Shown: positions 6,344 to 29,985, counted from the first letter of the stretch. The stretch is DNA of 32,000 bases from Trichlorobacter lovleyi SZ (GCF_000020385.1 NC_010814.1:3630001-3662000); one strand, 5' to 3'. Numbers and translations: made by a program. The notes: generated from the sequence alone by a model not told the origin.

Positions 6344-8875
6344 TCAACTGCTGTGTCTGGAAGCACCATGAAGCAGTGCTTTATACAGCGCCTGCAGATA
6401 AGCATGACCATGGAGCAAATCAGGTTCCAAGTGGTTACCTTCAGCCCATTCATTCCAGGCCTTGATAAAAACGATTCGATCAGCAGGGTCTTTTCTTTGC
6501 TCAACCTTCCGCAGGGCATCTTCCAGCATCTCTCCAAACAACTCGGGCGTGGAGCCTTGCAGCACAAAACCGTTACTGCCGCTACGTGGTGTATTATCCC
6601 AGTTAGGCACTACCAGTGGGTATTCATTATCTGACAACTGGTACTGTTTCAAATACAGCACCAAGTCCTCATAGCGAGACACCTTGGGAACGGAATTGCC
6701 AGAAAGGGGAATGACAGGCACCAGAGGTGCATTCATGGAGACAAACGGCGCATTATCAACACAGGCCTGGCAGCCATACGTTTCAGGATTGCGCACGTTA
6801 TGAGCCACAAAGTATATACCGCCCAAACCGGCTTCCTGGGCTAATTGCTGCCAATATGAGGTAAAGAGACAAGCGTCCGGCAGATTGGTTGGAGCATAAA
6901 TTACAAACAGTGGCCTGTCATGCACTCTTAGATAACGCGGATCCCGGAATGCCGGCAGTAGTGTATCGAAGTGCGCCTTATAATCCTCAAGCCCAGGGTA
7001 AGTCTGTTCTATCAACACACGATCCGGTGCCCCGTGCCATATACCTGACCAGGTTTGGTTAGCCCAACCAAGACAGAATGGGAAGTCAGGCTGTCCTGTC
7101 CGCACGACCTCATCAAATGGTCGCTCCAAAAGCTGGTGTCCGGCAAACCAGTAATGCCAGTAACAGAAGGCGTCAACACCATAACGACGCGCCATTTCAG
7201 CTTGTTCTAGCCGTATTTCCGGCACTCTAAGGTCATAATAACCCAAATCAGCAGGAACATGAGGCTGATAATGTCCTTCAAAGAGAGGGACCGCTTTACC
7301 TACATTGGTCCATTCCGTGAAACCTTTGCCCCACCATCTGTCGTTTTCGGGGATCGGATGAAACTGGGGGAGATAGAAAGCGATTGCTAACGCACGCTTC
7401 CCCAAAGGCAGGATTGTTCCTGAATGTACAACATCACGGACATCAATCTGCTCTTTTAGATGCTTTGTCAGATTATTATGAAACAGTGCCGTAAGGTTAC
7501 CCATATCAACAATCGGGTCCCTGAGTCTCACATCAAGCAATGTTTGCAAGAAGGCATGATGCTCAACAGAATCGGGTGTATGCACAGCAACCTGCTTGAA
7601 GTCATCTTCCAGAAAGGTCCCCCAATTAGAGATGGCTGAAAAGGCTACCGTATCGACTCCCAAACTTTTACCAAGCTCTACAAAACCACCCATCTCTTTG
7701 AAATTGCTGACCTGCACAATCATACGCAGTACAATCTGCATATGCTTTCTATATTCCGACTTGGCAAGCCCCTCCAAATTGGATAACAAACGCGAAAAAA
7801 CACCACCTTTTCGAATTATTTCATAACTTTCTGGGGTTACAGCATCAACGGAAATCGCAATCAGGAATATCTTGTCAACAACTCTCGAAAGGACGGCAGA
7901 AAAACTCCCCTCTGTCAGCAACATGCCATTGGTGTCAATTCTGATTCGGATTGTTGGATATCTGTTCCAATCAAATTCAGCAAAAATCCTGCGATATACT
8001 GAGCTGGCGAGAGGATCACCGGCACCAGAAAACCAAAGTTCCTCAACTCCCAAGGGTATTGCATCCAAAACAGCCATATCTTGGGAATAGGTTGTTGCAG
8101 CCTCCTGAGGCGAAGCTACATAAAGCGATGTCCGACACGAAGGACACGCCAGATTACAGGTAGGATCATCATCAAAGGAAACAATACGAGGCACTCTACC
8201 CTCAAGGGCATCTTCAACCATAAAGTTGAGCCCCCTCGAGATAAGCTCGGAAGAGCAGAATAATTCGTAGGGGATCTGATAGGCGGTACTGTTCCGATAT
8301 TCTCCTAGACCTATCTTCTGCATGCCTGCGCATTTACGCTTGTCACAGTAGCGATAACTACCGTCTTTAATCGATTGGCGCAAGACACGAGCCACAGGAG
8401 AATGCCATATTTCCTCTAAAGACTGCTGGCGGATATTCCCTATGGAAAAGGGAAGATAACAGCAAGGAGACAAATCACCATTGGTGTGGAGTTCAAGATA
8501 AAGAAACGGATTGGGACAGATAATACCTGAAAATTCGTCACCATATGAATAGGTCGGTATGTTCACAAGCGATGGAATCGCAGCTTCACCGCCAGGACAT
8601 CCCCCATCAACCCCCAAGTAAGCATCAAAATAAGCCTGCCATCCCGGCGGAGGGGATGGAGACACATCTACAGCCAGTGACTGTAAAAACGTCTTTTCCG
8701 CCAAATCTGTAACTACCGTATTCGGGCACAGATCAATGCCTTGCGCATCATGCAATAGCGAGATCAAGGCAGCAGCGTGCTTCTTGATAAGTGTCAGTGT
8801 ACGATGATCTCGGCAGGTTCTAATAGCATTAGCCATACGGGACATCACTAGTTGAAGATAGTGGTCTGTATTCAT
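6344..8875 (-). CDS. Fusion protein: radical SAM domain (with an upstream SPASM/twitch-like Cys motif) plus C-terminal WbsX-type glycosyltransferase-like domain
   Basis: Radical SAM core: DDDPTCNLACPSCR (CX3CX2C), WFSGAGDPL, RIDTNGMLL, ISVDAVTPESYEIIRKGG. Upstream of the core: CPNPFLYLELHTNGDLSPCC (CX12GX4C), then GNIRQQSLEEIWHSP and YCDKRKC. C-terminal half: AFYLPQFHPIPENDRWWGKGFTEWTNV...YGVDAFCYWHYWF...AWNEWAEGN, the WbsX-family signature. I chose the start at ATG 8875; the track start 8881 is a TTG two codons upstream. Confidence 0.75.
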   Translation of the reverse strand: MNTDHYLQLVMSRMANAIRTCRDHRTLTLIKKHAAALISLLHDAQGIDLCPNTVVTDLAEKTFLQSLAVDVSPSPPPGWQAYFDAYLGVDGGCPGGEAAIPSLVNIPTYSYGDEFSGIICPNPFLYLELHTNGDLSPCCYLPFSIGNIRQQSLEEIWHSPVARVLRQSIKDGSYRYCDKRKCAGMQKIGLGEYRNSTAYQIPYELFCSSELISRGLNFMVEDALEGRVPRIVSFDDDPTCNLACPSCRTSLYVASPQEAATTYSQDMAVLDAIPLGVEELWFSGAGDPLASSVYRRIFAEFDWNRYPTIRIRIDTNGMLLTEGSFSAVLSRVVDKIFLIAISVDAVTPESYEIIRKGGVFSRLLSNLEGLAKSEYRKHMQIVLRMIVQVSNFKEMGGFVELGKSLGVDTVAFSAISNWGTFLEDDFKQVAVHTPDSVEHHAFLQTLLDVRLRDPIVDMGNLTALFHNNLTKHLKEQIDVRDVVHSGTILPLGKRALAIAFYLPQFHPIPENDRWWGKGFTEWTNVGKAVPLFEGHYQPHVPADLGYYDLRVPEIRLEQAEMARRYGVDAFCYWHYWFAGHQLLERPFDEVVRTGQPDFPFCLGWANQTWSGIWHGAPDRVLIEQTYPGLEDYKAHFDTLLPAFRDPRYLRVHDRPLFVIYAPTNLPDACLFTSYWQQLAQEAGLGGIYFVAHNVRNPETYGCQACVDNAPFVSMNAPLVPVIPLSGNSVPKVSRYEDLVLYLKQYQLSDNEYPLVVPNWDNTPRSGSNGFVLQGSTPELFGEMLEDALRKVEQRKDPADRIVFIKAWNEWAEGNHLEPDLLHGHAYLQALYKALLHGASRHSS

Positions 8876-8895
8876 GATCAATCTCTTTTACTCAC

Positions 8896-10929
8896 TTAAT
8901 AAGCAGGCCTACCGACAGCAAGGTCAACCAGCAAGTTTATGCTTTTTTGCGGGTCACCAAGCGCTCTGGCCAGAAATGTCTTTCTAGCCTCCTGCACTTC
9001 CGATGAAAACCACCATTCCTCTGGAGCATCGGCAACGTGAACCAGAAACTCCGCTGCTGCCTGAGGATCTGTCTGGCAAATCCCAACAGTGATCAGAGGA
9101 TCAAAAAAATCCCTGTAGTACACATCCAAAAAACCAAGGGGGGCTGGAAACAGCAAGATGGTTGGAATATTCATACTGAGTGACTCAAGGTGCGTTGTGG
9201 CCAGATATGCAACCACAACCAAACGAGATGCAGCCATGACCTCCTTACAGCTTCTGGAAAGATCATCTCTGGTTGAATCTACCAGTAAATCTTCTAGAAA
9301 CGTCATATCATCCTGGCAGTTTTTCCAGTTACTACCATAGCCGCTCTTGGGATATCCACGGTAATGAATGTATTTTCTAACTCCCACTTCCAGAGAGTCT
9401 AGAAACTTTCTCTTAAACTGAATACCGTGGATAGCATGGAAGCCATTACCTGCCAAAGCAGAACTGCCACTCAGCAGTGAATCCTTCATGAAAGCCAAAC
9501 CGCTTACATACAGAATCCGATGTTCATAATGCGACCGGGGCTGCCGTTCTTCTCCAAAATCATAGAGTGAACCGCCTTGGACACCATTTCTGATTAATAT
9601 GCTATGGGCTCCATGAGCCATGTAGATATCGCAGAGTTTTGACCAGCGCGGCAATGCAGACGCAACAAAAGGATGCTCAGAATAATTATGTTCATGATAG
9701 ATTGTCTTGACGCCCTGTTGCATGAGGATAGCCAGCACAATCGGTTCGATTGCATCACCAATCCACAGCTCACTGACCACATATTTCAAACGACGGTATA
9801 ATGACATTTGAGTCATTATTGAACCGTACACAGCTCTCCAATCCTCAACAAATGTACGGGGAAACAACGCAGTGAAGGTAGAAAGGAAAAAATTGCTGAA
9901 ACGGTCCAGCTCAACCGCCGGTTGTGCAAGAAATGTCCGTTTTTCAAAATCAATCGTGGTACCACAGGTAAAAAGACGGTCATATCCAATCCGCTGAATC
10001 TCATATCCCGAACGGGTTGCCAGCTGCTGAGACCACTGTTCCTTGAACCACGAGCCAAGAATCCCCACAATAGGCTGATAGGGGGTTGGTGGAGTCGGAG
10101 AGGCTTGAACATAATCCGAGTGATACGCCTGTTGATAGAATGGGAAACGACCGGAATGGAAATAGCTACAATACATGCTGAATAGCTGTTCTTGCCCAAA
10201 ATCACGATCAGACAGAAACCAGTGCAGGTCATCATAGTCAACTGGCATATAAAAACATGCTGGGTCAAGCATAACAGCATGAACATCAGACACCGCCAAT
10301 GCAGATTCTGCAGCGACAAAGTGGTCATAGACTAATGTCAGATGCCGGTCAAGACTCATTCCAAGAGCCCTGCGCCAGAATTCTATCCCCAACTGGCTGC
10401 CATGAATGGCATCCAAACGTTCAGCAAGCAGAGGCATTACCTGCTCGGTAACAGCAGAAAGATATGATGCGGATGCCTTCAGACCCTCTGGATGAGTACG
10501 CTCTGTCGCAACCTCCTGAAAAGACCCACCCCCTAAAATTCTACGTAAGCATAATCCTGTGAACGCATCAGGGACGAGATACTCATCAGCACCAGCACCA
10601 TGTTGCAACGCCAAGGCCGACGGCAGAAAAAATCTCCTTCTTTTTGCCAATGTACCAGTCTTATCTACTGCTACCGACCATCCAAGTACCTCAAGACTTT
10701 TCAATGCCTCTGGGTTCCCATGACGAGCAGCCTCTTTAAAAAGGGCATAAGCTTGAGCAAATTTGCGCTCACGCACCATCATACATGCCATGAAATTTGC
10801 GTGATTCGGACAGTTCAAGGCTGTCAACGCAGTAGTGTTGCTGAACACGCTTGCGTCAGCCTTGGCATAGTTTCCGCCAGCAAGTAGATTAGATATATGA
10901 TCAGACAAATCATCCATAAACGATCTCAT
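8896..10929 (-). CDS. Large uncharacterised protein: N-terminal Sel1/TPR-like repeat, C-terminal putative transferase domain
   Basis: 677-aa ORF. The N-terminus has a Sel1-like repeat, FAQAYALFKEAARHGNPEALKSLEVLGW. The C-terminal part has YHEHNYSEHP...ILYVSG...IHYRGYPKS...RLVVVAYLATTHLESLSMNIPTILLF. This pattern recalls O-antigen-region putative transferases (LIC12162-type) and TagF-like folds. The coding call is solid; the function is a guess. Confidence 0.35.
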   Translation of the reverse strand: MRSFMDDLSDHISNLLAGGNYAKADASVFSNTTALTALNCPNHANFMACMMVRERKFAQAYALFKEAARHGNPEALKSLEVLGWSVAVDKTGTLAKRRRFFLPSALALQHGAGADEYLVPDAFTGLCLRRILGGGSFQEVATERTHPEGLKASASYLSAVTEQVMPLLAERLDAIHGSQLGIEFWRRALGMSLDRHLTLVYDHFVAAESALAVSDVHAVMLDPACFYMPVDYDDLHWFLSDRDFGQEQLFSMYCSYFHSGRFPFYQQAYHSDYVQASPTPPTPYQPIVGILGSWFKEQWSQQLATRSGYEIQRIGYDRLFTCGTTIDFEKRTFLAQPAVELDRFSNFFLSTFTALFPRTFVEDWRAVYGSIMTQMSLYRRLKYVVSELWIGDAIEPIVLAILMQQGVKTIYHEHNYSEHPFVASALPRWSKLCDIYMAHGAHSILIRNGVQGGSLYDFGEERQPRSHYEHRILYVSGLAFMKDSLLSGSSALAGNGFHAIHGIQFKRKFLDSLEVGVRKYIHYRGYPKSGYGSNWKNCQDDMTFLEDLLVDSTRDDLSRSCKEVMAASRLVVVAYLATTHLESLSMNIPTILLFPAPLGFLDVYYRDFFDPLITVGICQTDPQAAAEFLVHVADAPEEWWFSSEVQEARKTFLARALGDPQKSINLLVDLAVGRPAY

Positions 10930-10949
10930 CAGTCAGCGGGTAGTATTCA

Positions 10950-13172
10950 TTAGATAAGCGCCTTCCAGTCGGCAATCGTTGGAGTAGCGCATACATCCAA
11001 ACGTTGTCGTACTGCTTTAGAAAAGCTCGGGGACCTCCAGCATCGTGCCAGATTTACAGCAGAGGCCAGACAGTCAGGCTCATCTGGCAAGCACTGGGCA
11101 ATCAGTATATTCTTTTCCAGCAATCCTTCTGTAACGGCAAGATATGATGCAGACTGAAATAACAGGCAAAAAGCGTTCGAAACGGGGTACACCTGCAACA
11201 GGCGATACACTCGTTCAAATGCCTGCGCAAATTCTCCATTTCTAAAAAGAAGCTGACACATCAGCAATTCATCTTCAGGATGCAGCACCGGCTGCCGCAC
11301 TACGATTTCCAATGCTTGGCTCCAACCACCCAACGCAAGTAATGTCTTAGCGCAGTTCCATCTCAGATCGCTGCCTTGCTCTACTGCTTTTTGGCTTTCT
11401 TCAAGCCGATCCGACACCCTTGCTGAAATGCTACCAACGGCAAAAGGGTCCAACGGCATACTGCCTATTGCGGTATGTAACCGCTTTAGTTCGTTGTCAT
11501 CAAAGACATGGGCGCTTCTCCCCCATAACCCAAGTAGCCGCACCGGCAACTGTGAGGTCAGCCAGTCGGTCGCGCCAGCCTCATTGACGATGCGCTGCCA
11601 GTCATCTCCGGCAAGGCGAAAAAATGCCGCCAGATATTCGCAGCCGAGCAGCCATGGATCAGGTGTGAACTCTGCAGGGTATATGTGAACAATCACACTC
11701 CAACCTGCATAGAGCTGAAACAGAGCAACATCAGGATAGGCGTCTGCCACAGCGGTTCCCAGCATCGGAATCAGATCACCTTGCCTGAGCGCCTTGACAA
11801 CGCCATCCCATGCCGCCTGCGCTCCGGTTGTTTCCTGGAGGCCATGCAGCGGTATCATGCGCCATGCAGGCTGTCTTTTCCCTTCTTCTAAAAGAATGTA
11901 GAGGTGATCCAAAAACAAGGGGAGAGATCTGCCAGCCGCCGGATACTTACGGTTACGCCTTTCAAGCAGCCGTTCACAGCATGCGTCTGGTGAGGCAAGG
12001 ATTTTTGAGACAAGCTCAAGCAGTTGTCGAAGACTGAATACAGTGTAACCAATCTCTGTCTCCTGTGGCATAGGTGCCGCATCCTGCTCATCGAAGCGTA
12101 TCGCTGGTTGCAACGTTGCCATTGCAAACACTTCCGAGGAACTCCCTCTATGGTGTATAAGTAGTGCCCCGTTTCGGTAGTCTTCGATATAGGAGGGCCC
12201 AAGGCTAAGTACAAATTGCGGGTTACTGGAAAAACGCTCAATCAATTCGCGATGGCACGCCTCATCTCCCGGAAAAGGCCGAAATATCAGACGGCGACCT
12301 GGAAACGACTCTAACAGGGATTCAACCGTTCTGATTGCATTGGAGCGTGCCTTGTCACTCTCGAGTTTCCAGTAGGAAAAATTATATATGATATCGACTG
12401 GTTGAGTGTCTGACATCCTGGAAATGAAGCTGTCGATTTTCGTATTTCCAAAAGGGACCAGTGTTAGCGTTTCTGAACGATGGTCGATAATTTCGCGAGG
12501 GAAAAGATCTATCAGAAGCTCTTCAAAGTTGGGGGCCAGGATATCCGGTTCAAAACTGGGACAAAGTAAATAGTCAAACATGAGCCCCGCGCCGTAAAAC
12601 ATGTACCCATAACGAGCAAGAATATCCGTGCCGTGAGGCTGCAGAATCCGCAACGTATTGGGAGGCAACCGACGCATCTTCTCCGCTGCATAGTCCAAGG
12701 CTATTACGGCATCAAGAAAATCCAGACGCACCAGCTTTTCCCCGGGCGGAGCCCATATCCAAGGGTAACCACTGAAGGCAGTATCCAGAAAACGATCTGG
12801 CGGAGTTAGGTGGATATCAGACATAACAACAAACAGCTGATATCGTTCATCATAACGCAACAGATCCGCCCAAGCGGTTTGCATCTGATTGAACATCGGG
12901 CCACTATATTCGTGGATAAGCAGCCCTATTGCTTTCTTGCCGCCGCAGGCCTGTTTTGCCAAAGAGAGCTGGAGATTAAAGAGCTCCTCAACCCAGTCAG
13001 CAGTGCCCTTTGAACCATCACAAAATCCCTCTAAAACCGCTGAGTGCTCAAATCCGAGTGTCTTCAGACACGAAAGATATGGCCCCAATACAGCAAGCTC
13101 AGGTTTACCATAAAGCTTGCCAGCAAGAAGCGATTGATCTGTAGCATAGATAGAGGAGTATGATCTTTTCAT
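10950..13172 (-). CDS. Large uncharacterised protein: N-terminal putative TagF-like (CDP-activated phospho-)transferase region, C-terminal helical-repeat region
   Basis: I chose the start at ATG 13172 (MKRSYSS), preceded by GGTGG and 11 nt after the upstream stop. The 13229 extension would overlap the kinase gene by 44 nt. LVPFGNTKID...VDIIYNFSYWK...RRLIFRPFPGD...YIEDYRNGALLIHHRGSSSEVFAMATLQPAIRF resembles the G-P-x-D / ILYAPTWR / K-HP / LITDYSS-FD layout of glycerophosphotransferases. The last ~150 aa are TPR-like helices. Function is inferred only. Confidence 0.35.
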   Translation of the reverse strand: MKRSYSSIYATDQSLLAGKLYGKPELAVLGPYLSCLKTLGFEHSAVLEGFCDGSKGTADWVEELFNLQLSLAKQACGGKKAIGLLIHEYSGPMFNQMQTAWADLLRYDERYQLFVVMSDIHLTPPDRFLDTAFSGYPWIWAPPGEKLVRLDFLDAVIALDYAAEKMRRLPPNTLRILQPHGTDILARYGYMFYGAGLMFDYLLCPSFEPDILAPNFEELLIDLFPREIIDHRSETLTLVPFGNTKIDSFISRMSDTQPVDIIYNFSYWKLESDKARSNAIRTVESLLESFPGRRLIFRPFPGDEACHRELIERFSSNPQFVLSLGPSYIEDYRNGALLIHHRGSSSEVFAMATLQPAIRFDEQDAAPMPQETEIGYTVFSLRQLLELVSKILASPDACCERLLERRNRKYPAAGRSLPLFLDHLYILLEEGKRQPAWRMIPLHGLQETTGAQAAWDGVVKALRQGDLIPMLGTAVADAYPDVALFQLYAGWSVIVHIYPAEFTPDPWLLGCEYLAAFFRLAGDDWQRIVNEAGATDWLTSQLPVRLLGLWGRSAHVFDDNELKRLHTAIGSMPLDPFAVGSISARVSDRLEESQKAVEQGSDLRWNCAKTLLALGGWSQALEIVVRQPVLHPEDELLMCQLLFRNGEFAQAFERVYRLLQVYPVSNAFCLLFQSASYLAVTEGLLEKNILIAQCLPDEPDCLASAVNLARCWRSPSFSKAVRQRLDVCATPTIADWKALI

Positions 13173-13185
13173 GACGCCACCACTA

Positions 13186-13752
13186 TCAGGAAGCTGTCGG
13201 CTTAGCCAGCTGTACCAGTCTAGGCACAAGCTGCTGAAGTATCAATTCTATCGTATCCTGAACAGAAGTAACACCGTCTGAAACATCAATACAAAGCTCT
13301 GGGGCAGTGGGCTCCTCAGCAGGAATATCCAGACCCAGTACATTTGAAATCTCGCCCAGGTCATACCGTGTATAGAGTTGCTTGGTCTGATCCCGTCTCC
13401 GACGGGTCGCTTCATCAGATTTCAGGTAGACCTCAAAATAACCGGGCAATGTTTGCCGATGGTATTCCTGCACCTCTCTGATGGCGGTATTGGCAGCAAC
13501 AATTATGATAATCCCCTGGTCAGCCAGCATAGCCGCCAGGCGACCGATACGCAGGGCATTTTCAGTCCGGCTCTTTAGGTCATAGTGGCTTGTTTCCATG
13601 CCAAGTACCACCCGCATGGCATCACCATCCAAGATGACGGCAGCATGGCCCACATTCTGCAATCGCTCTTTGAGTGCCCAGGCAACCGTTGTCTTTCCTG
13701 CATTTGGAAGACCGATGATCCAGATTATCAATTGGGTGCTCACAGTCTGCAT
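13186..13752 (-). CDS. cysC: APS-kinase-fold kinase; by context more likely a Cj1415-type cytidine diphosphoramidate 3'-kinase than a sulfate-assimilation CysC
   Basis: P-loop IIGLPNAGKTTVAWAL, ILDGDAMR, and FEVYLKSDEATRRRRD.TKQLY are the adenylylsulfate kinase hallmarks. No ATP sulfurylase or sulfotransferase is present in the window. The gene sits 2.3 kb downstream of the Cj1418/1417/1416-like genes. It starts at ATG 13752 and overlaps the upstream gene by 13 nt. Confidence 0.7.
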   Translation of the reverse strand: MQTVSTQLIIWIIGLPNAGKTTVAWALKERLQNVGHAAVILDGDAMRVVLGMETSHYDLKSRTENALRIGRLAAMLADQGIIIIVAANTAIREVQEYHRQTLPGYFEVYLKSDEATRRRRDQTKQLYTRYDLGEISNVLGLDIPAEEPTAPELCIDVSDGVTSVQDTIELILQQLVPRLVQLAKPTAS

Positions 13753-14774
13753 AGTTCTAAAAATTCAGAAAATTCAATCCAATCGAGATATTCACGGTCA
13801 CTACGGTGCAACAGTTTACCAGAAAGTTCGGGAAAAGCCGCCTGTAAGCCATCTCGAAATGTTGCGTCATTTTGTATAAAGCGTTGCGTTGTTTCAGCGT
13901 CCTTACAAACTATTCCCTCTATGTACAATTTTGTATCGTCATTTCTCAATCCAGATGCATTTCTGCGGAGCAGTATGATAGATGAGTGTGAACGATAATA
14001 ATCTGCAAAGCTGTCCAAAGAAAGATAGCAAACCTGTTTTCCGGTCCCAAGCGCAAGACTACCTTGTCCATGAACATTAAAGGAAATGTCAAAAACACCA
14101 CAGACTGCCCGGCTGAATAACAAGAAAAAATCTTCTGGCGAACGAACTGCATATAAAAGTGTTACACCCTTTGCAAAGGCGACTGATACCCGAGAAGGGA
14201 TAGACTTCTCATCACTGTAAGTTTGAATACGACAATTCCCATGCAGTTGTTTTGCCATAAGATTAAAAAATGGCGATATATCGAATCCCTCCCATGCAAC
14301 CCCCTGAACTGTGAGTTCGGGCCTGGCCATGGGTATTTTTGCCATATCCAGCAAGGTTGCACAGCACGCAATACCTTCAATACAACCAAAAAGAGTTTGG
14401 CCATGCTCATAATAGATTGGCGTAAGGTCATCGATAGTCTGCAAGGCAGCCCATTTGGAAAGATTGCTAGAAAAATCATCAGGATGATGGATCAGCTCCT
14501 GATACAACCGTCCCACCTCTGACAGGTCACCACTCGATAATGCCTGCAACATCCAGATGTAACAAGAAATATCCTGAGAATAACGGGCATGCATAAACCA
14601 ATCATAAGCCTGTTGCATGGTTCGGAAATCGTATATTTTCTTGATGGGAGGAGAGGTTGCTATAGCCCCAAATTCCAAATATGAAACAACTTCTCCACCA
14701 TCATTATAATGGTTATTCACCAGGGTCCTCCACGACGAATATTCCTTCTGGCAACTTTTTCGAATACGAATCAT
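13740..14774 (-). CDS. Hypothetical protein (no recognisable family)
   Basis: 344-aa ORF in operon phase with no motif I can place. The start is uncertain: ATG 14774 overlaps the upstream gene by 62 nt, and the next in-frame ATG is at 14618 (MQQAYDWF). Confidence 0.45.
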   Translation of the reverse strand: MIRIRKSCQKEYSSWRTLVNNHYNDGGEVVSYLEFGAIATSPPIKKIYDFRTMQQAYDWFMHARYSQDISCYIWMLQALSSGDLSEVGRLYQELIHHPDDFSSNLSKWAALQTIDDLTPIYYEHGQTLFGCIEGIACCATLLDMAKIPMARPELTVQGVAWEGFDISPFFNLMAKQLHGNCRIQTYSDEKSIPSRVSVAFAKGVTLLYAVRSPEDFFLLFSRAVCGVFDISFNVHGQGSLALGTGKQVCYLSLDSFADYYRSHSSIILLRRNASGLRNDDTKLYIEGIVCKDAETTQRFIQNDATFRDGLQAAFPELSGKLLHRSDREYLDWIEFSEFLELCRL

Positions 14775-15489
14775 TCAATCGCTTTATAGCCACCAGTCTG
14801 AGAAATGGGTGCATTACAAAATATGGTTTGCATTGTGGCGCAGAGATATTCTTTTGAGGCTTCGGGGATAATTTGCAGTGCCAACGTCGTAGCAGGCGCT
14901 CTAACACCATTGATCTTACATACGGATCAAGAATAGCATCAACAAAATGAGACTGATCTTGGTTAAGGTATATATTCACTCGAAAGGCAGCTTCTTCAAG
15001 GATTGGGCCATCATCAAGCTCCGCGCCCATGAAAAATGCTGTTCCATAAAGCGTCCCGTCCTCAAGCAAACTATAATAAAATGTTGTACTTCCTCGATAT
15101 GCTGGAAGCCGTCCTGGGTGTACATGGATAAACCGCTTGCCAGAGGACAAAATCTTGTCACGTAGTATGCCGCCACCGGTAAAAATCCATGTCTCAAGAT
15201 CAAAACCGTCCAGATACTGCAGCAGTTCATCATCATTTATATTGTTCGCCCCCACAGTATCCAGAGGTATCCCATGGCGCTTGCAATATTTTTCAGCTGT
15301 CTCTGTTACATCAAAATATGACGTATCATAGTGATATCGCATTGACTCAGCACAAATATCCTGAAAATGCAAAATAGAATGAGAAAGCATAACAACACGT
15401 ACGGGATGAACAGCAGCGCGCTCAAAGGCCGCTAGATAAGCAAGGCTTCTCATGCCGGGAAACAAAATCATGCCAAAGGAATTATCCAT
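14713..15489 (-). CDS. Formyltransferase-fold protein (Formyl_trans_N-like; candidate sugar N-formyltransferase)
   Basis: FIHVHPGRLPAYRGSTTFYYSLLEDGTLYGTAFFMGAELDDGPIL matches the formyltransferase core (H-P-S-LP-YRG ... D.G.D.GPI). I chose the start at ATG 15489 (MDNSFGMILFPG), preceded by AAGGTG with 5-nt spacing and overlapping the upstream stop by 8 nt. Confidence 0.6.
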   Translation of the reverse strand: MDNSFGMILFPGMRSLAYLAAFERAAVHPVRVVMLSHSILHFQDICAESMRYHYDTSYFDVTETAEKYCKRHGIPLDTVGANNINDDELLQYLDGFDLETWIFTGGGILRDKILSSGKRFIHVHPGRLPAYRGSTTFYYSLLEDGTLYGTAFFMGAELDDGPILEEAAFRVNIYLNQDQSHFVDAILDPYVRSMVLERLLRRWHCKLSPKPQKNISAPQCKPYFVMHPFLRLVAIKRLNDSYSKKLPEGIFVVEDPGE

Positions 15490-16024
15490 GCAACACCTTA
15501 GCAACGGATTCCTGCTCAAGCACAAGGACTGCCCTCACTAGCGAAACATCGTAGATATCCCCTATCAAGACATGATCTATCACCTTCAATGCAGAGTTCA
15601 GTTCGTTCAAGGACAATGTTCTTGAAAAACGCACCAATAATATAGCTGCAAAAAGAGCCAGGTCGTCTGCTATCGCGTATGTCTCGCCTACCTTGTGAAA
15701 GCAACTATCGTACTGAGCCGCAAGCCGTCCGAATAACGCAAACTTCTTTTGCAACATGTAGACAAGCTCAGAATCGGATGTCCCTGTAATCCGCTCATGA
15801 CGCCACAATGTTGTAAGAAGCTGAATAAGCGTTCTTGCGGCATCAGATTCTTCATGTGCATCTACATAGCTATCAATCTGCTTTAGCGCCGTATGAGCAT
15901 CTGGCTTACGAGCCCCAAGGGAGTGGTATCGTTGTTCCCAAAAGCAAGAGATACCATCCGCTATATCAAGCAGTGGAATTTCGCCCTCGTTTTTAGTGTA
16001 AGAGCCGACCGAGCTCACTACCAT
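15482..16024 (-). CDS. Hypothetical, predicted all-helical protein (no recognisable family)
   Basis: About 180-aa ORF in operon phase. ATG 16024 overlaps the upstream TAG (ATGGTAG). The track start at 16030 is a TTG two codons upstream. Confidence 0.45.
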   Translation of the reverse strand: MVVSSVGSYTKNEGEIPLLDIADGISCFWEQRYHSLGARKPDAHTALKQIDSYVDAHEESDAARTLIQLLTTLWRHERITGTSDSELVYMLQKKFALFGRLAAQYDSCFHKVGETYAIADDLALFAAILLVRFSRTLSLNELNSALKVIDHVLIGDIYDVSLVRAVLVLEQESVAKVLHG

Positions 16025-16779
16025 CTCCAATCATGGTGCCATACTGTTTTACAGCTATCCACCGAGCAAACCATTTCTTCATATATTTCACGGTCAGTCT
16101 GTACATCAACTTCACACCAACGACCGTTTACAGAACAAACCTGCACAGTGACATCCTGCTGTAAAGCATGCCTGATCCACGAAGTCATATCCAAACACGC
16201 TTGTTCTTTTGCTGAAAGCTTCAGATATATGTCAAAAAACTGTTTCCACCCCTGGGGTTTAAATAACAAAAGTCCCATGTACTGTGCTTCGACTTCTTCA
16301 AGCGTCTTTGGTTTGCCACCAATCTCCTTCAAAATACCACATTCCTCTTGGAAGGTTTCAGCATCAGCTATCGGATCTTCGCCCCTCAAACGCCAGAGTT
16401 CCAGCCAAAGCCGGTCAGCAGTAATTGCAATTGAGCCGTCGCAGGCGATAAGCGCACGGACATGGTCCGGGTGGTAAACAATATCTGAGTAACTGATGAT
16501 AGTTGGCCCTGAAGCTAGCCAATCCGTTGCACAAACAAGTGAAGAGGCCATATTGGTCTCTGCCCAGCGTGTATTGTCCACTGTAGAAAAATCACCATAC
16601 AGCAACTCTCCGCGATAACCCCTTACCACTAGTATTTCAGTAACTCCCGCTGCACGCAAACTTGCAAGTTGCCACTGCAGAAGATTCTTACCTGCAAGCA
16701 TAGTACAACATTTGGGGCGTCCCTCCGTATCACTCCCCATTCTGGAACCACGACCTGCAGCAAGTATAACGGCTTTCAC
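16018..16779 (-). CDS. Nucleotidyltransferase (MobA/LicC-like NTP transferase); candidate Cj1416-type CTP:phosphoglutamine cytidylyltransferase
   Basis: N-terminal KAVILAAGRGSRMG signature (GxG[ST]R). 253 aa. The GTG start forms a GTGA overlap with the upstream amidotransferase-like gene. Confidence 0.7.
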   Translation of the reverse strand: MKAVILAAGRGSRMGSDTEGRPKCCTMLAGKNLLQWQLASLRAAGVTEILVVRGYRGELLYGDFSTVDNTRWAETNMASSLVCATDWLASGPTIISYSDIVYHPDHVRALIACDGSIAITADRLWLELWRLRGEDPIADAETFQEECGILKEIGGKPKTLEEVEAQYMGLLLFKPQGWKQFFDIYLKLSAKEQACLDMTSWIRHALQQDVTVQVCSVNGRWCEVDVQTDREIYEEMVCSVDSCKTVWHHDWRW

Positions 16780-17417
16780 TCGTTAGACCTCCTAAAATGA
16801 CTCGCAAAGAGTGCTTGATCAAACGACTTAAATGACTGTTCACGCTCTGGATGCCACATGATACCAAGCAGCTTCATATCATGTGCATAAACCGCCTCAA
16901 TTGCTCCATCAACCGCTGACACAGCCCATACCTTTAATGGCGAAGCCTCATCGGGTATTGCCTGCCAAGCATGATACGAATTGACTTGTTGAGACGGCAA
17001 CAAGTGCGGCAATGGCCGTCCTTCAAACACACGCAAAGCGTGGTTCATCCCAATGTGAAGATCTTGGGATACAGGCGACAGAACACCACCAAGCTGCTGC
17101 ACCATGAACTGCATTCCACGGCAAATACCAATGACCGGATGGTTCCTTGCCATCATCCACGAAAGTGCTAACGATTCGCTTTCGTCCCTCTCAATCGACG
17201 CCCCAATATCGTTTCCGCCGGTTAGAACCAGTCCACAAGGTTTCAGTTCATCTAGCAGGCGCCGCGCCATAACAACATTGTTGGGAAGCAGCAGCGGCAT
17301 GCAGTCCGGAAGAGCGCAACCTAAAAAACTCCACCAGTCGTGCGCAATGCAATCTCGCACCTCAGCATGCATACCCTCTGCTGCTACTCTCATGGATATA
17401 GCCAAAAGCGACTTCAT
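16776..17417 (-). CDS. Class I glutamine amidotransferase / peptidase C26-like hydrolase; candidate Cj1417-type gamma-glutamyl-CDP-amidate hydrolase
   Basis: LVLTGGNDIG, nucleophile elbow PVIGICRGMQFMV, and His-Glu pair in GIMWHPE. 213 aa. The start shows an ATGA overlap with the upstream kinase-like gene. Confidence 0.7.
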   Translation of the reverse strand: MKSLLAISMRVAAEGMHAEVRDCIAHDWWSFLGCALPDCMPLLLPNNVVMARRLLDELKPCGLVLTGGNDIGASIERDESESLALSWMMARNHPVIGICRGMQFMVQQLGGVLSPVSQDLHIGMNHALRVFEGRPLPHLLPSQQVNSYHAWQAIPDEASPLKVWAVSAVDGAIEAVYAHDMKLLGIMWHPEREQSFKSFDQALFASHFRRSNE

Positions 17418-19801
17418 AACGGATGCAAACTTTGACGTTCGGCATCAAGCTCACAACGTTTGGCAGCAGCTACCTTGTCAAATAATATTTGCCCACAACC
17501 TATAGCTGCCGGTATGTCATTTTCACTGCATCTGATAGCCATATGGGAATTTGCTCCGCCATATTGCGTTACCAGCCCCGCTATACACCGGGTAAACAGC
17601 CAGTCGTAGCCGGGATCAGCGTTTTCAATGCAGACGATGCATCCATTCAGATCAAGATCTCCCCGACTTGTACTGTCAAGGCGTACAACCTTGCCCTCCA
17701 CATGTCGACGCGTAACCCAGTTGGGGGTACTGCGATGCTGAGGCACCACATAAACATCCCGGCATGAGCGTATTAGGTATCCTAATTTGAGATTTTTACC
17801 AGCATCTGAAATGTTTTTGCCTTGTCGAATCAACGGTTCAAAGTATTCACGCGGCATGGAAAGCAAAGGAGCAATAGAGACTCTTAGTAAATCTTCAATA
17901 TTTAGCCAAGAGAGGTCATCCCGAGTTAAACCGATCACATCCCCCCATACGGCAAGCGATTCAAGTGCATCTGAAAGGCTGCGGGTAAAAATAAACTTGG
18001 CATACTCCCGTCCAGCTATAGCTTTTTCTGCATAGAGCAACAACTCTTCTGCCTGGAGGTGCCCCAAGCCAGCCTCATGTAACAATTGATCCAGGTTACG
18101 TTTTTCAGCCGGCTCTAGTTCAAATGGTTCGTGGCAATAGGTTGTAGAGGTATATAAACCTGCCAATACTTCAGGTCTATCAGCATAACGAGGGCTTAGG
18201 ATATCATAGGTGCCTGGGCGTAAATGTCCGTAACGAGACATGAAGTCTCCTGGCGAGAGTCCTCCCTTTGCAACGCTTTGCATATCTGTACTCATCACGC
18301 TCGTAATTGTCTTGACGCTTTTTCTGAAAGTACGAAGCCGCTCCGGCAACATTGCATGCCGATCTACGGCAGACCTGAGTAATGCCTCAGCCATAAAGGC
18401 ATGGCGCGCAATCATAGAGAAAGGTAATGTACCAAGAGTTCTACACTCTTCCAGCAACTTCCTCACCCAGGCCAGTAGGGCATACGGCTGTTTACCAAGG
18501 ACACATGAATCATGAAACGATTTTTGAGACATCACAAGCCGTTCAAGGGTTCCAAGCGCAACCATGAGTGGTGAGGATGCCTCTGCACTGACATTTTGCC
18601 GTGTCAGATATTGATAACAGCTAGACACTTGATCAAAACGCTGTCCAGACAGTAGTCCGGGATAGCGCGCGGCAATTGTCTGTTGAAATGTAAAATCGTA
18701 GACTGTGCTAACGATTCCGAACTCAACCTTATCATGCAACTCGGGGTTCTTGTCCAGGCGGTCGAGCCAGGCATTTACCAGCAGTTCAGCAGTATCGTCC
18801 AGAATTCCAGCAGCAAGGAACGAATTAAAACTACAACGTACATCAATATACGGGCGTCCCGCGAGAATCAGCATCAGCTCTTCAGGCGGCACCGACCGAT
18901 ACCCCATTTTTTCTCGTGCAAGGCTCCAGACGCGCTGCGTTATCAAATGACGATACAATGATGTAGCCAACGGTCGGGGAGTAACTCCGATAATCTCGGC
19001 TGGATTCCAATCCGGCATAACACCGAAGAGGGTTCTCTGTCCAAAGAGGCCAGGCCGAGGTGACGAGAGACGCTCAACAAAGTCTTCCACAAAAGATATT
19101 CCATGAGCAGTCTGATCAACAATTTCAGCGGCCCATTTTCCTGCAACAGCAATGGGGCGCACCTGAAGAACATAGATGCAACCGGCCAAATCTCTGCAAA
19201 ACTCTATATCAAGGGCGTCGCTATGAAAAAAGTTTTCAAGGCGGCGCGCAAGGTAAACAAGCTCCAACAGACGGGGAGAATCAAAATCAGTATTTCTGAA
19301 ACCACGATATACATATACGGTTTTACCACCAACACCGCTGGTTACCGTATCGGTTTGAGAGGTTTCATCATCATAATTCAGTACATAGTAAGGAGCACCA
19401 TCATCTGCAGCACGAGTCATGATCACGCCACTCATGACAGTACCCACAACCATCTGCTGTATCAAAACCTGGTCTTTGGCGGTATTCACGCCATATGAAT
19501 CAATGACTTGCTTAACAGCTTGACATATGGCGTTTTCTTGATCCACTGGTACATTAAGAATGCTTTCAAATACGCCTGCATTGGAACAGCTTACAGTATC
19601 CTCCTGACGGCAACTGCTACGCACCGCAATTTTGCCTATAGCTCCTCCGAAAGAGCTCTTGATACGTACCAAAACAGTATCTTGGGAATCAAACCACTCC
19701 TGCACAGAAAAATAGAGCAAAGGCGGAACATTAAATCCAGCCTGATGCAAAATTTCCAATATCTCTGCTTTTGATTGCGCTTGTTTAACCTGATGCTCCA
19801 T
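17414..19801 (-). CDS. PEP-utilising-family kinase with N-terminal PPDK_N ATP-grasp and extreme C-terminal phosphohistidine swivel domain; candidate Cj1418-type L-glutamine kinase
   Basis: N-terminus IAVRSSCRQEDTVSCSNAGVFESILNV (the PPDK_N pattern VAVRSS..ED..SFAG...LNV). C-terminus LVTQYGGANSHMAIRCSENDIPAAIGCG, with the His about residue 753 of 795, so there is no room for a C-terminal PEP/pyruvate TIM barrel. ATG 19801 is preceded by GGAG at 5 nt. Confidence 0.7.
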   Translation of the reverse strand: MEHQVKQAQSKAEILEILHQAGFNVPPLLYFSVQEWFDSQDTVLVRIKSSFGGAIGKIAVRSSCRQEDTVSCSNAGVFESILNVPVDQENAICQAVKQVIDSYGVNTAKDQVLIQQMVVGTVMSGVIMTRAADDGAPYYVLNYDDETSQTDTVTSGVGGKTVYVYRGFRNTDFDSPRLLELVYLARRLENFFHSDALDIEFCRDLAGCIYVLQVRPIAVAGKWAAEIVDQTAHGISFVEDFVERLSSPRPGLFGQRTLFGVMPDWNPAEIIGVTPRPLATSLYRHLITQRVWSLAREKMGYRSVPPEELMLILAGRPYIDVRCSFNSFLAAGILDDTAELLVNAWLDRLDKNPELHDKVEFGIVSTVYDFTFQQTIAARYPGLLSGQRFDQVSSCYQYLTRQNVSAEASSPLMVALGTLERLVMSQKSFHDSCVLGKQPYALLAWVRKLLEECRTLGTLPFSMIARHAFMAEALLRSAVDRHAMLPERLRTFRKSVKTITSVMSTDMQSVAKGGLSPGDFMSRYGHLRPGTYDILSPRYADRPEVLAGLYTSTTYCHEPFELEPAEKRNLDQLLHEAGLGHLQAEELLLYAEKAIAGREYAKFIFTRSLSDALESLAVWGDVIGLTRDDLSWLNIEDLLRVSIAPLLSMPREYFEPLIRQGKNISDAGKNLKLGYLIRSCRDVYVVPQHRSTPNWVTRRHVEGKVVRLDSTSRGDLDLNGCIVCIENADPGYDWLFTRCIAGLVTQYGGANSHMAIRCSENDIPAAIGCGQILFDKVAAAKRCELDAERQSLHPL

Positions 19802-19849: not shown

Positions 19850-20811
19850 CTAATCACACATCCCATCACCTGCAACAGTGTGATTAAGTCTCCATACACC
19901 ATTCTCTTTGCCCCAGATATGCGGCGAACGCCAACTGTCTATAACTTCATGAAAATATTCTTCGCTAATGCCGCAGTACTCAAGAAAAGTCTTGTAATAC
20001 TGTTTTGGAAACTCGCCATCAAACCGTTTTACGAGCTGCACCCCCTCCTCGCGGGTTAAATGGCCATCCCGTATTTCGTGAGCCGTATCCGAGGTGGCGC
20101 GACCAATACCGAATTTTATGAATGAGAGATAATAGTGAAATCCATCCAGTTGGTCGTCAATTGAAGCATATTTTGAATACGTTCCTTCATTTCTTTCAGA
20201 TCTGGCAGAAAAACCTGTATGCTCAGCTGCATAGTAGTAATTTTCCTGCGGTATCCACTTATGGTAGTAAGAAAAGAAATGTATCTTCAAATTTGCTTTA
20301 TCCATTTCTTCAAGAGGTGGGGCAAGGTAAGGGACAAGATCATTCTGGTCAACACCATAATGAACCATGTCTTCTGGCGGAAGGTTTGAAAAGTAGTGCG
20401 TTTTCTGATCAGAGCTATAGTTCCTGTCGGGCCTGTATGCGTTGGTCATGTCACCACCATATTCGACCTCTCCGTTTTCTCCATACATGATTAACGGTAT
20501 CTTATGCTGCACTGCAATCTGGAGAGGAAAGTTATGCTGCCCAAAAATAAATGGCTGAAACGGATCTCCCAGTATTTCAAAAGAAAGCTTGGTCAACTTT
20601 CTATGAACAATGCCGTTGGGCGTCCCGAGGACATTATCAAGTCCACCGACATGCACCATATTCTGAAAGTTTCTCCAGCCAATGTCGGTATACAAATGAG
20701 GAGCCCATGTAACCGTAAGCACTTTCATGCCATATTTATACTTCAGCATATGGGCTACGAAAGCGCTATCCTTACCACCGCTGGCCGGCACCATGAAGTG
20801 GTTGCGGTTTT
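19850..20811 (-). pseudogene. N-acetyl sugar amidotransferase (WbuX/WbpG/PseA family), C-terminal ~320 codons, separated from its N-terminus by the IS element
   Basis: PP-loop MVPASGGKDSAFVAHMLKYKYGMKVLTVTWAP followed by GDPFQPFIFGQ and PLIMYGENGEVEYGG. The track ORF 19850..20875 borrows its first 21 codons (MRCCMEPLLSKGSAHCLYSCL) from antisense IS sequence. Confidence 0.75.
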
Positions 20812-20841
20812 TGAGACATGAGTATAAGCAATGAGCCGATC
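20812..20841 (+). repeat. IS left terminal inverted repeat
   Basis: TGAGACAT...ATAAGCAAT...CCGATC blocks are shared with the reverse complement of 22010..22048. Confidence 0.7.
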
Positions 20842-20861
20842 CCTTTGAAAGGAGAGGTTCC

Positions 20862-21167
20862 ATGCAGCACCGCACCCGTTACAGTTCAGAATTTAAGGCC
20901 AAGGTAGCCTTGGCAGCTTTAACCGAATCCAAGACGCTGGCCGAGCTCGCCAGCGAGTACAAAGTTCACCCAAGCCAGATCAGCAACTGGAAACAGGAAC
21001 TCGTTGAAAACGCCTCAGACCTCTTCGGCAAAGGGAAGAAGCAAGAGGTCAATCACGACGCCGAAGTAGCCGAGCTGCACCGCGTCATCGGCAAGCTCAA
21101 GGCGGAAAACGATTTTTTGTCAAATCTGCCCGGTCTGAGCTTGACCGGGCGCAGAAACAGAAAGTGA
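20862..21167 (+). CDS. IS3-family transposase OrfA (helix-turn-helix)
   Basis: MQHRTRYSSEFKAKVALAALTESKTLAELASEYKVHPSQISNWKQEL plus a leucine-zipper-like tail (AELHRVIGKLKAENDFL). GGAGAGG lies 5 nt upstream of the ATG. Confidence 0.85.
   Translation: MQHRTRYSSEFKAKVALAALTESKTLAELASEYKVHPSQISNWKQELVENASDLFGKGKKQEVNHDAEVAELHRVIGKLKAENDFLSNLPGLSLTGRRNRK
21113..21119 (+). promoter_or_regulatory. Candidate programmed -1 ribosomal frameshift heptamer T TTT TTG joining orfA to orfB
   Basis: gat ttt ttg in the orfA frame. The -1 frame is open from here (FFVKSARSELDRAQKQKVIATGHPDVSVERRCELLGVARASYY) through the DDE domain, giving the usual OrfAB fusion layout. Confidence 0.55.
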
Positions 21168-21991
21168 TCGCCACCGGCCATCCTGATGTTTCTGTTGAAC
21201 GCAGATGTGAACTGCTCGGCGTAGCGAGAGCCAGCTACTACCGTGGTCCGGCATCCGGCCTTCGTTCCGGTGATCTTGCACTCATGCGGCGGATCGACGA
21301 ACTCTATCTGCAGCATCCCTGGATGGGAAGTCGCTCTTTGGCAGATCATCTGACAATACCAGAAGAGCCGGTAGGCCGTGACCGGGTTCGCCGTCTGATG
21401 CTGCTGATGGGCATCCAGTCTCTGTCGCCCAAGCCGGGAACCAGCAAGCGGCATCCCAAGCATCCGGTTTACCCATATCTGCTGCGGGGACTAACCATTG
21501 ACCGTCCCAATCAGGTGTGGGCAACCGACATCACCTACATTCCGATGGCCAGAGGCTTCATGTACCTGGTTGCCATCATGGACTGGGGCACCAGAAAGGT
21601 GCTCTCTTGGCGCCTGTCCAACACGCTTGACACCCGCTTCTGTGTCGAAGCACTCAAGGAGGCACTGTTCAAATACGGAGCCCCCGAGATATTCAACAGC
21701 GACCAGGGGTGCCAGTTCACCAGCGAGGCATTCACCTCAGTGCTGAAACAGTGGAACGTTAGGATCAGCATGGATGGCAAAGGCCGTTTCAAGGACAACA
21801 TCTTCATTGAACGGCTCTGGCGTACCCTCAAATACGAGAGGATCTACCTTAGAACCTACGAGACCGGAACTGAGCTTTTCAAAGACCTGACAGACTGGTT
21901 CAACTGGTACAACAACGGCAGAAAGCATACATCACTTGACAAGCAGACACCGGATGAGGCGTATTACCAAAGACTGAAGCTGGCAGCCTGA
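21164..21991 (+). CDS. IS3-family transposase OrfB (DDE/rve integrase domain), probably made as an OrfAB fusion
   Basis: NQVWATDITYIPMARGFMYLVAIMDWGTRKVLSW (first D), IFNSDQGCQFTS (second D), ISMDGKGRFKDNIFIERLWRTLKYERIY (E). The frame is open upstream to the slippery site at 21113. Confidence 0.85.
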   Translation: MIATGHPDVSVERRCELLGVARASYYRGPASGLRSGDLALMRRIDELYLQHPWMGSRSLADHLTIPEEPVGRDRVRRLMLLMGIQSLSPKPGTSKRHPKHPVYPYLLRGLTIDRPNQVWATDITYIPMARGFMYLVAIMDWGTRKVLSWRLSNTLDTRFCVEALKEALFKYGAPEIFNSDQGCQFTSEAFTSVLKQWNVRISMDGKGRFKDNIFIERLWRTLKYERIYLRTYETGTELFKDLTDWFNWYNNGRKHTSLDKQTPDEAYYQRLKLAA

Positions 21992-22009
21992 GGCCAGAAA
22001 CGACAACCA

Positions 22010-22048
22010 GATCGGTATATTGCTTATTCTACCCATCAGGATGTCTCA
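22010..22048 (+). repeat. IS right terminal inverted repeat
   Basis: Its reverse complement begins TGAGACAT and shares the ATAAGCAAT and CCGATC blocks with the left end. It carries about 9 extra nt relative to the left repeat. Confidence 0.7.
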
Positions 22049-24534: not shown

Positions 24535-24538
24535 GAGC

Positions 24539-27510: not shown

Positions 27511-27511
27511 T

Positions 27512-29933: not shown

Positions 29934-29968
29934 TTTGGCCGCATGAGAGATGACTTATTTATGTATCG

Positions 29969-29983: not shown

Positions 29984-29985
29984 AT

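Follow-up and report, generated by a model that had tools for sequence, protein, structure and literature searches.

An optional formyltransferase-like gene pair in the phosphoramidate operon of Trichlorobacter lovleyi SZ

The gene-neighbourhood, sequence and structure-model comparisons presented here concern three consecutive open reading frames (ORFs), ORF-A, ORF-B and ORF-C, in a 32,000-nucleotide stretch of Trichlorobacter lovleyi SZ (GCF_000020385.1 NC_010814.1:3630001-3662000; the whole stretch is called the window, and positions are counted from its first nucleotide), where they lie inside an operon for making an activated phosphoramidate. Our data leave very little doubt that all three genes belong to the phosphoramidate pathway: gene order conserved across phyla and several gene fusions bear out the functional link that an earlier note on this DNA had proposed from position. 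We found that A and B form an obligate pair, and that C is a rarer addition, usually placed after A/B, so that the three do not form the single unit the note had taken them for. We found no description of the A/B module in the searchable literature. As to what the genes do, our leading but still tentative proposal is that A and B make up a two-part tailoring enzyme that might formylate a cytidine diphosphate (CDP)-linked phosphoramidate, and that ORF-C might methylate it.

The operon

In Campylobacter jejuni, O-methyl phosphoramidate (MeOPN) decorates the capsule, is related to virulence and serves as a phage receptor. Its donor enzymes lead to 3'-phospho-cytidine diphosphoramidate and comprise the L-glutamine kinase Cj1418, the cytidine triphosphate (CTP):phosphoglutamine cytidylyltransferase Cj1416, the gamma-glutamyl-CDP-amidate hydrolase Cj1417 and the cytidine diphosphoramidate 3'-kinase Cj1415; the late steps, by which the group is transferred and gains its O-methyl, are still unassigned, and neither Cj1419 nor Cj1420 has been given a function (PMC11800397). 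MeOPN has been reported from Campylobacter only (PMC6429109). Similar to the C. jejuni pathway, the window has one homologue of each of these four enzymes (called K, N, H and P, in the order just given), followed by candidate transferases, and all four enzyme types are encoded in one overlapping operon with A, B and C. Unlike in C. jejuni, A, B and C stand as extra genes between the Cj1416-like gene and the Cj1415-like one, a position that is empty in C. jejuni as judged from the contiguous numbering of Cj1415-Cj1418. The order on the minus strand is K-H-N-A-B-C-P, and then a 740-residue protein and a LIC12162-family transferase:

17414-19801, minus strand: K, Cj1418-like L-glutamine kinase, first gene of the cassette; Pfam PPDK_N and PEP-utilizers
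16776-17417, minus strand: H, candidate Cj1417-like gamma-glutamyl-CDP-amidate hydrolase; Pfam Peptidase_C26/GATase, 1.8e-22
16018-16779, minus strand: N, Cj1416-like nucleotidyltransferase; Pfam NTP_transf_3, 1.8e-17
15482-16024, minus strand: ORF-A, ATG start, 180 residues, predicted all-helical
14713-15489, minus strand: ORF-B, ATG start, 258 residues, formyltransferase fold with a His-x-His...Asp site
13740-14720, minus strand: ORF-C, GTG start, 326 residues, predicted class I methyltransferase-like fold
13186-13752, minus strand: P, Cj1415-like APS-kinase-fold kinase; Pfam APS_kinase 1.6e-29; NF004041 229 bits, cutoff 127
10950-13172, minus strand: 740-residue protein without a family, 759 residues if read from TTG 13229; faint TPR-like C-terminus
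8896-10929, minus strand: LIC12162-family transferase (TIGR04331, E=1.4e-161, over cutoff), candidate phosphoramidate transferase

In the NCBIfam scan K matches NF004508/PRK05849 (E=1.4e-299, 995 bits, cutoff 501), and the best match of H is NF045546 GCDPHdlase (7e-23, 81.7 bits), which stays under the cutoff of 250. Read at the junctions, K/H and H/N overlap by 4 and 4 nucleotides (ATGA and GTGA), the ATG of ORF-A at 16024 overlaps the stop of N by 7, the ATG of ORF-B at 15489 that of ORF-A by 8 (ATGGATAA), the GTG of ORF-C at 14720 that of ORF-B by 8 (GTGAATAA) and the ATG of P at 13752 that of ORF-C by 13, which confirms the earlier description of three overlapping, coupled ORFs between the cytidylyltransferase-like and APS-kinase-fold genes. 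Two of the lengths given in that description change: ORF-B has 258 residues rather than 259, and ORF-C, which reaches 344 residues from an alternative ATG at 14774, more likely has 326 from the GTG, a choice we favour because its homologues measure 314-335 residues and the database gene call (P0001) is also of 326. With homologues in conserved synteny, A, B and C are real genes and not chance ORFs.

Conserved association with Cj1418-type cassettes

The association was surveyed from both ends. Starting from the kinase, a Cj1418-like alignment applied to one genome per species found at least 559 relatives, so that cassettes of this type are widespread among species-level genomes, and the best 80 loci were examined, with the ORF-B subfamily scored as present at E<1e-20. 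It was present in 36 of these 80 (~45%), in diverse bacteria and archaea, and in nearly all 36 ORF-A lies directly upstream of ORF-B or is fused to it; carriers of A/B include Aeromonas, Pseudomonas, Alteromonas, sulfate reducers, Ignavibacteriales and archaea. Such a share points to an unknown step, or a chemical variant, of the decoration of glycans with P-N groups. ORF-C was found in a single one of the 80 loci (L079, Methanosarcinales). Starting from the module, a metagenome scan with motifs of the ORF-B subfamily gave another 80 loci, of which 75 have ORF-A directly upstream of ORF-B; in the remaining five ORF-B lies at most ~600 nucleotides from the contig end (four at the very end), where ORF-A is not assessable. 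A Cj1418-like gene is present in 16 of the 17 metagenome loci that have at least 5 kb on either side of ORF-B, so that A/B is hardly ever seen apart from it, and ORF-C follows ORF-B in 7 of the 80. Viewed from ORF-C, all 11 contexts that contain one of its homologues or the window gene (the homologue loci being L001-L004, L169, L170 and L171) place it within the cassette, and 10 of the 11 beside A/B. Synteny with Cj1418-like genes, one of the checks the earlier note had set, is thus conserved.

Gene order is also informative. With A, B and C in lower case, the repeated arrangements are P-a-b-K-H-N (Pseudomonas, Aeromonas, Alteromonas, Sedimenticola), K-H-N-P-a-b, K-P-a-b-H-N and K-H-N-a-b(-c); most related loci with all three genes keep the K-H-N order, K-H-N-a-b-c(-P) is seen again in an unrelated JGI contig and in Geobacteraceae, Ignavibacteriales and Methanosarcinales, and in Aeromonas veronii the order is c-P-a-b-K-H-N. 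On the kinase tree loci with A/B are interleaved with loci that lack it, which rules out a single origin of A/B and fits a module that is optional and mobile, not one ancient clade. The core genes K, H, N and, mostly, P are present with or without A/B, and none of the four is replaced by it. Because A/B also occurs in loci that have no APS-kinase-like gene (L003, L004 and L087, in which a CTP_transf_like domain is fused to K), its role is not tied to the 3'-phosphate. Nor are DegT aminotransferases enriched with A/B (10/32 loci with A/B vs 13/48 without), which makes an amino-sugar acceptor unlikely.

Fusions place A/B at the nucleotide-bound stage

Gene fusions narrow down the stage at which A/B is likely to act. 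A 435-residue protein (P0140, from a cluster of 12 sequences) joins ORF-A to ORF-B and is encoded between the C26 and NTP_transf genes of its cassette, and A-B fusions are likewise found in four species genomes (L029 Methylotenera, L035 Rubricella, L036 Castellaniella and L075 Rheinheimera). ORF-A is further fused to the APS-kinase-like enzyme in L048 (Mailhella) and L054 (Magnetococcales), and to the Cj1416-like cytidylyltransferase in a 464-residue protein (P0208). That ORF-A is joined both to ORF-B and to two enzymes handling CDP-linked intermediates suggests that A/B acts on phosphoramidate while it is bound to the nucleotide, and not on the sugar; the fusions are the strongest argument for this placement.

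ORF-B, a formyltransferase-fold subfamily with an altered triad

The formyltransferase core noted earlier in ORF-B was confirmed, in that its family profile matches, among the sequences of the PDB, Fmt (methionyl-tRNA formyltransferase, 5.9e-10, the best solved relative) and sugar N-formyltransferases (2e-8), the latter being deoxythymidine diphosphate (dTDP)-4-amino-4,6-dideoxyglucose formyltransferases and VioF; because of these matches the homology of ORF-B to the formyltransferase superfamily is secure. A sequence search returned 55 homologues, and a match to Pfam PF00551 (Formyl_trans_N) is precomputed for many members of the family. When ORF-B is aligned to E. coli PurN, H122 falls on Asn106, H124 on His108 and D159 on Asp144, so that the His and Asp of the catalytic triad are kept, and the full Asn/His/Asp triad, whose conservation the earlier note had proposed to check, is not. 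Across 124 family sequences of genomic and metagenomic origin, H122, H124, G126, G133, D159 and G161 are invariant (124/124), and R192 and H227 are conserved in 123/124. The folate-site motif, canonically H-x-S-L-L-P-x-x-R-G, has the consensus H-V-H-P-G-x-x-P-x-Y-R-G-S-T, with Ser changed to an invariant Gly, the Leu-Leu pair variable and the Pro absent in some members. Elsewhere the core is retained (GGGIL, HxHPG, YRGS and D-x-G-x-I), R14-S15 aligns with what we take to be the position at which PurN binds the substrate phosphate, and the C-terminal part with R192 and H227 is specific to the family, as are the likewise conserved D184 and D188.

Since the His-x-His...Asp pattern is systematic across the family, ORF-B is a distinct formyltransferase-fold subfamily with a His-His-Asp site and not a decayed copy. 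The change from Asn to His may suit a poor nucleophile or a phosphoryl group, or it may mark a switch to another chemistry. Similar to PurN, Fmt, the ArnA N-terminal domain, VioF and the dTDP-Qui4N formyltransferase, ORF-B has the core, the catalytic His and Asp and the D-x-G-x-I loop, and similar to that superfamily in general its acceptor is likely a nucleotide-linked amine. It differs from them in the Asn to His replacement, the degenerate SLLP motif and a C-terminal part of its own (R192, H227), as well as in having an obligate separate helical partner and in adjoining phosphoramidate rather than amino-sugar genes.

ORF-A, the obligate partner of ORF-B

ORF-A is the obligate upstream partner of ORF-B and belongs to a family without a curated model. 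The window protein has no Pfam or NCBIfam match, none of 50 scanned family members has a Pfam match, and its profile finds no match among PDB sequences; at E<=10 Pfam returns noise only for ORF-A, as it does for ORF-C and the 740-residue protein. A word-seeded search gave 2 relatives, which would fit a true orphan; positional alignment and an exhaustive profile search instead show a diverged family, with 67 representatives at E<=1e-3, and unannotated proteins of 190-210 residues at the equivalent position align with ORF-A and have LQKKF, YD..K.G, LN.A.K.ND and LEQ in common with it. The two "orphans" of the earlier note, ORF-A and ORF-C, are therefore without a curated family, and are not orphans of a lineage (67 and 86 relatives, respectively); neither falls into a well-known unrelated family. 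An AlphaFold2 (AF2) model of ORF-A (predicted local distance difference test, pLDDT, 90.0) has seven helices, in keeping with the helical protein of about 180 residues described before. Foldseek found nothing significant for this model in the PDB, the best matches (E=0.078) being halves of (alpha/alpha)6 toroids (GH8, GH105, LanC-like), and no match among the BFVD viral models. Some sugar N-formyltransferases have an additional domain of helical repeats (ankyrin in QdtF), which offers a loose parallel to ORF-A.

ORF-C, a putative methyltransferase without a sequence family

A search with ORF-C returned 86 homologues of 28-63% identity, every one annotated as hypothetical, in Aeromonas species, Geobacteraceae, Ignavibacteriales, Bdellovibrionales and metagenomes. 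ORF-C has no Pfam or NCBIfam match, no Pfam match was seen in 65 scanned family members, and its profile has no match among PDB sequences at E<=10. Its AF2 model (pLDDT 90.1) was compared with the PDB by Foldseek at a listing threshold of E<=1e-3, and the best 50 of the 65 matches are nearly all class I S-adenosylmethionine (SAM)-dependent methyltransferases or close SAM-using relatives, among them the EvdMO1 N-domain, METTL6, CcbJ, PsmD, AzeJ and, at rank 23, the phosphonate O-methyltransferase DhpI; the top match scores E=6e-6 (TMt 0.50, TMq 0.38). The model thus predicts a class I methyltransferase-like fold for which there is no sequence-level family. The invariant residues E105/G107/G112 and G145-x-D147-x-S149 match the putative SAM site loosely, and D147 (of G-x-D-x-S) follows a predicted strand at 142-146, the expected place of the acidic residue that binds the SAM ribose.

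Compared with class I methyltransferases, ORF-C is alike in its predicted fold, in the position of D147 after predicted strand 2 and in a Glu/Gly-rich loop after strand 1, and unlike in having no detectable sequence or profile similarity, a non-canonical GxGxG and ~100 extra N-terminal residues. Class I methyltransferases include enzymes that act on oxygens bound to phosphorus, such as DhpI and MccD of microcin C. With a methyltransferase-like fold in ORF-C and two ordinary methyltransferase genes further downstream in the window, the contrast drawn earlier with C. jejuni, whose neighbours at this place were said to be methyltransferases and not these genes, is blurred.

A tentative role in phosphoramidate tailoring

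Considering the fusions, A and B would work as one two-part enzyme, a single polypeptide in some organisms, in which ORF-A might serve as a helical adaptor or substrate-binding subunit coupling ORF-B to N and P, and ORF-B would be the diverged formyltransferase-fold catalytic subunit, with 10-formyl-tetrahydrofolate as the formyl donor. The acceptor might be the nitrogen of the CDP-linked phosphoramidate or of its 3'-phosphate form, the simplest candidate being the amidate nitrogen of cytidine diphosphoramidate, since nucleotide-linked amines are the usual acceptors of the formyltransferase superfamily; the extra invariant His could then assist reaction at P-NH2, a poor nucleophile, or at its phosphoryl oxygens. 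ORF-C would be a divergent enzyme with the SAM-dependent methyltransferase fold that O- or N-methylates the phosphoramidate, and the proteins encoded downstream, LIC12162-type or that of 740 residues, would then hand the modified group to the glycan. By our own chemical reasoning O-methylation and N-acylation would each stabilise the acid-labile phosphoramidate monoester. If so, A/B might define an unrecognised branch of the pathway, present in ~45% of the 80 loci, all outside Campylobacter, and leading to N-formyl phosphoramidate or to a non-formyl P-N chemistry, with ORF-C as a new family of phosphoramidate methyltransferases; we put this forward with the same reserve as the proposal itself. 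Were it true, glycans would have in N-formyl phosphoramidate a decoration that has not been described before. In any case ORF-A and ORF-C each define a family without a curated model, and ORF-B a formyltransferase subfamily whose triad is altered.

Several observations weigh against this proposal. None of the 124 ORF-B family sequences has the canonical triad Asn, which is always His, and the replacement weakens the idea of N-formylation raised in the earlier note; that idea nevertheless stays the leading hypothesis. The score of ORF-B itself against PF00551 (25.7 bits, E=1.1e-5) misses the gathering score of 26.1 by 0.4. The structural matches of ORF-C have modest TM scores (0.38-0.50), its loop after strand 1 reads E105-L-G107-Q-T-L-F-G112 with no canonical GxGxG, and a comparison by hhalign with the ordinary methyltransferase family from neighbouring loci gave a probability of 0.1, i.e. 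no relation, so that it is the fold that carries the methyltransferase call. One locus, L170, has ORF-C without A/B. We know of no glycan that carries N-formyl phosphoramidate, and we found none in the searchable literature. Finally, C. jejuni makes the donor without A/B, as seen from the contiguous Cj1415-Cj1418 numbering and the described pathway (PMC11800397), and the core pathway can thus do without the module.

A different, rather doubtful possibility is that ORF-B is a repurposed scaffold that transfers no formyl group, and that with ORF-A as its partner it offers a metal or general acid-base site to a P-N intermediate, formed by the His-x-His on one strand together with D159, D184, D188 and H227, for hydrolysis, transamidation or phosphoramidyl transfer. 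Strand residues i and i+2 face the same way, a common metal-binding geometry, and the replacement of Asn106 by His in 124/124 sequences, the conservation in the family of R192, H227, D184 and D188, which canonical formyltransferases lack, the degenerate "SLLP" folate motif (H-P-G-x-x-P, with the Pro absent in some members) and the sub-threshold Pfam score all fit this reading. However, the formyltransferase core is otherwise well preserved (GGGIL, HxHPG, YRGS, D-x-G-x-I), including the equivalents of His108 and Asp144 that matter most for formyl transfer, and we know of no metal-dependent enzyme with the formyltransferase fold.

It is less probable still that A/B formylates, in the manner of Fmt, the free alpha-amino group of CDP-L-glutamine or L-glutamine phosphate before the C26 hydrolase acts. 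Methionyl-tRNA formyltransferase is indeed the best solved relative of the ORF-B profile (E=6e-10), P0208 joins ORF-A to the cytidylyltransferase responsible for CDP-L-glutamine, and the order N-a-b is common. Yet ORF-A is equally fused to the kinase that acts after hydrolysis (L048, L054), P-a-b is as common as N-a-b, and we infer no evident purpose in formylating a group that is later discarded as glutamate. That ORF-B is an ordinary amino-sugar N-formyltransferase of the same glycan, incidentally placed in the cassette, is highly improbable, for despite the profile matches to dTDP-4-amino-4,6-dideoxyglucose formyltransferases and VioF, the FdtA-like isomerase and DegT aminotransferase genes in some loci with A/B (e.g. 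Pseudomonas) and the DegT gene in the window (25987-27528), DegT is not enriched with A/B, A/B stays tied to K-H-N-P across very different glycan loci, its fusions are with pathway enzymes and not sugar enzymes, and the characterised sugar N-formyltransferases known to us keep the catalytic Asn.

Returning to the tailoring proposal, we also considered whether A/B replaces O-methylation. Support was weak: a methyltransferase gene lies within 3 kb in 10/36 loci with A/B and in 21/44 without, and one methyltransferase group ("cluster 9", see below) is exclusive to loci without A/B, but those loci are mutually related. In the searchable literature we found no link of a formyltransferase-like, ORF-A-like or ORF-C-like gene to the pathway, the primary papers of the Raushel laboratory lying outside that search. 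A preprint on Borg elements describes Cj1416-1418-like genes in archaeal elements and does not mention the A/B/C module (bioRxiv 10.1101/2024.11.05.622173).

Other genes of the cassettes

The "cluster 9" methyltransferase is a class I enzyme of 250 residues (L006 13821-14582 and 12 other loci) that lies between N and P in most carriers. It occurs in 0/32 loci with A/B and 12/48 without, a contrast that may be partly phylogenetic, and among solved structures the one nearest to it is HvrF, from the pantaphos cluster of Pantoea (PDB 9e72, E=2e-30). It resembles ORF-C in occupying the same N-P slot, in Desulfovibrio-type loci whose kinase is closest to that of the window, and differs from it in being an ordinary Methyltransf_11 protein with no sequence relation to ORF-C. 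"Cluster 20" (L072 13345-14568 and L170 8954-10192, among others) comprises proteins of ~410 residues with an N-terminal hydrophobic segment and the motifs GDS and N-Y-G-x-G-N-Y-G-L-D-Q-A, SGNH-like by eye and without a Pfam match, and is found in 1/32 loci with A/B and 7/48 without; it may be another alternative accessory gene. The 412-residue gene after ORF-C in L170 is no A-B fusion and by eye resembles this SGNH-like protein instead.

As for transfer to the glycan, the LIC12162 family also stands beside the cassette in L003, L169 and L170. The 740-residue protein has no Pfam or NCBIfam match, and its homologues (630-760 residues) adjoin A/B cassettes in L001 (5268-7370), L002 (8003-9907, Aeromonas veronii), L036 and L075; it is possibly a transferase or an accessory gene of the cassette. 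The TagF-like profile built from neighbouring loci does not match it, so that we set aside a TagF-like transferase. TagF-like (Glyphos_transf) or LicD-like proteins themselves adjoin many cassettes (L031 7097-8158, L087 8761-9939, L171 9007-10203, L003 11035-11709, L170 10267-10962) and, as families that move phospho-groups from CDP-activated donors, are plausible alternatives to LIC12162 as phosphoramidate transferases.

The kinase varies too. Where a separate APS-kinase-like gene is absent, K carries an N-terminal CTP_transf_like domain (~940-966 residues; L003 4228-7128, L004 4268-7126, L087 3197-6022, L170 3752-6565), and K of L086 (1224-4094) has an N-terminal APS_kinase domain instead, which suggests alternative ways of activating the donor. 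In L086 a fusion of CTP_transf_like and PEP_mutase (6776-8179) directly follows a cassette with an A-B fusion, so that genes for phosphonate and phosphoramidate decoration are adjacent, as has been remarked for Borg elements (bioRxiv 10.1101/2024.11.05.622173). L039, a metagenome-assembled genome of Rhodospirillaceae, has a K-P-a-b-methyltransferase block (~9950-14956) with no C26 hydrolase or cytidylyltransferase detected within 17 kb, flanked by Rad52-like, DUF5681 and IS3 integrase genes, and may represent part of a cassette, rearranged or mobile.

Surroundings of the operon in the window

Downstream of the operon, the window encodes at 6344-8881 a fusion of SPASM/radical-SAM and WbsX glycosyltransferase parts (845 residues). 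A radical-SAM partner recurs among these cassettes: directly after ORF-C there are separate radical SAM and WbsX genes in L003 (12180-14472), or a fusion of Glyphos_transf, radical SAM and SPASM in L004 (11021-13417). Immediately upstream of the operon an IS3-family element on the plus strand (20821-22030; transposase ORFs 20862-21167 and 21164-21991; imperfect inverted repeats of 21 nucleotides at 20821-20841 and 22010-22030) splits a WbuX-type N-acetyl-sugar amidotransferase gene (19850-20875 and ~22060-22304), with the N-terminal zinc-ribbon part upstream of the element and the C-terminal 341 residues downstream, and the element may affect transcription of the operon. Farther on, the genes at 22304-31038 encode a NeuB-like synthase, a GNAT protein, a DegT aminotransferase, a B12-binding radical SAM enzyme, a cytidine monophosphate (CMP)-sugar synthetase and a HisH/HisF-like pair, which suggests a nonulosonic-acid pathway of the legionaminic or pseudaminic type. 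A sigma-54 activator is encoded at 31090-31932. This part of the window may be an O-antigen or flagellin-glycosylation island, so that the phosphoramidate could decorate such a sugar.

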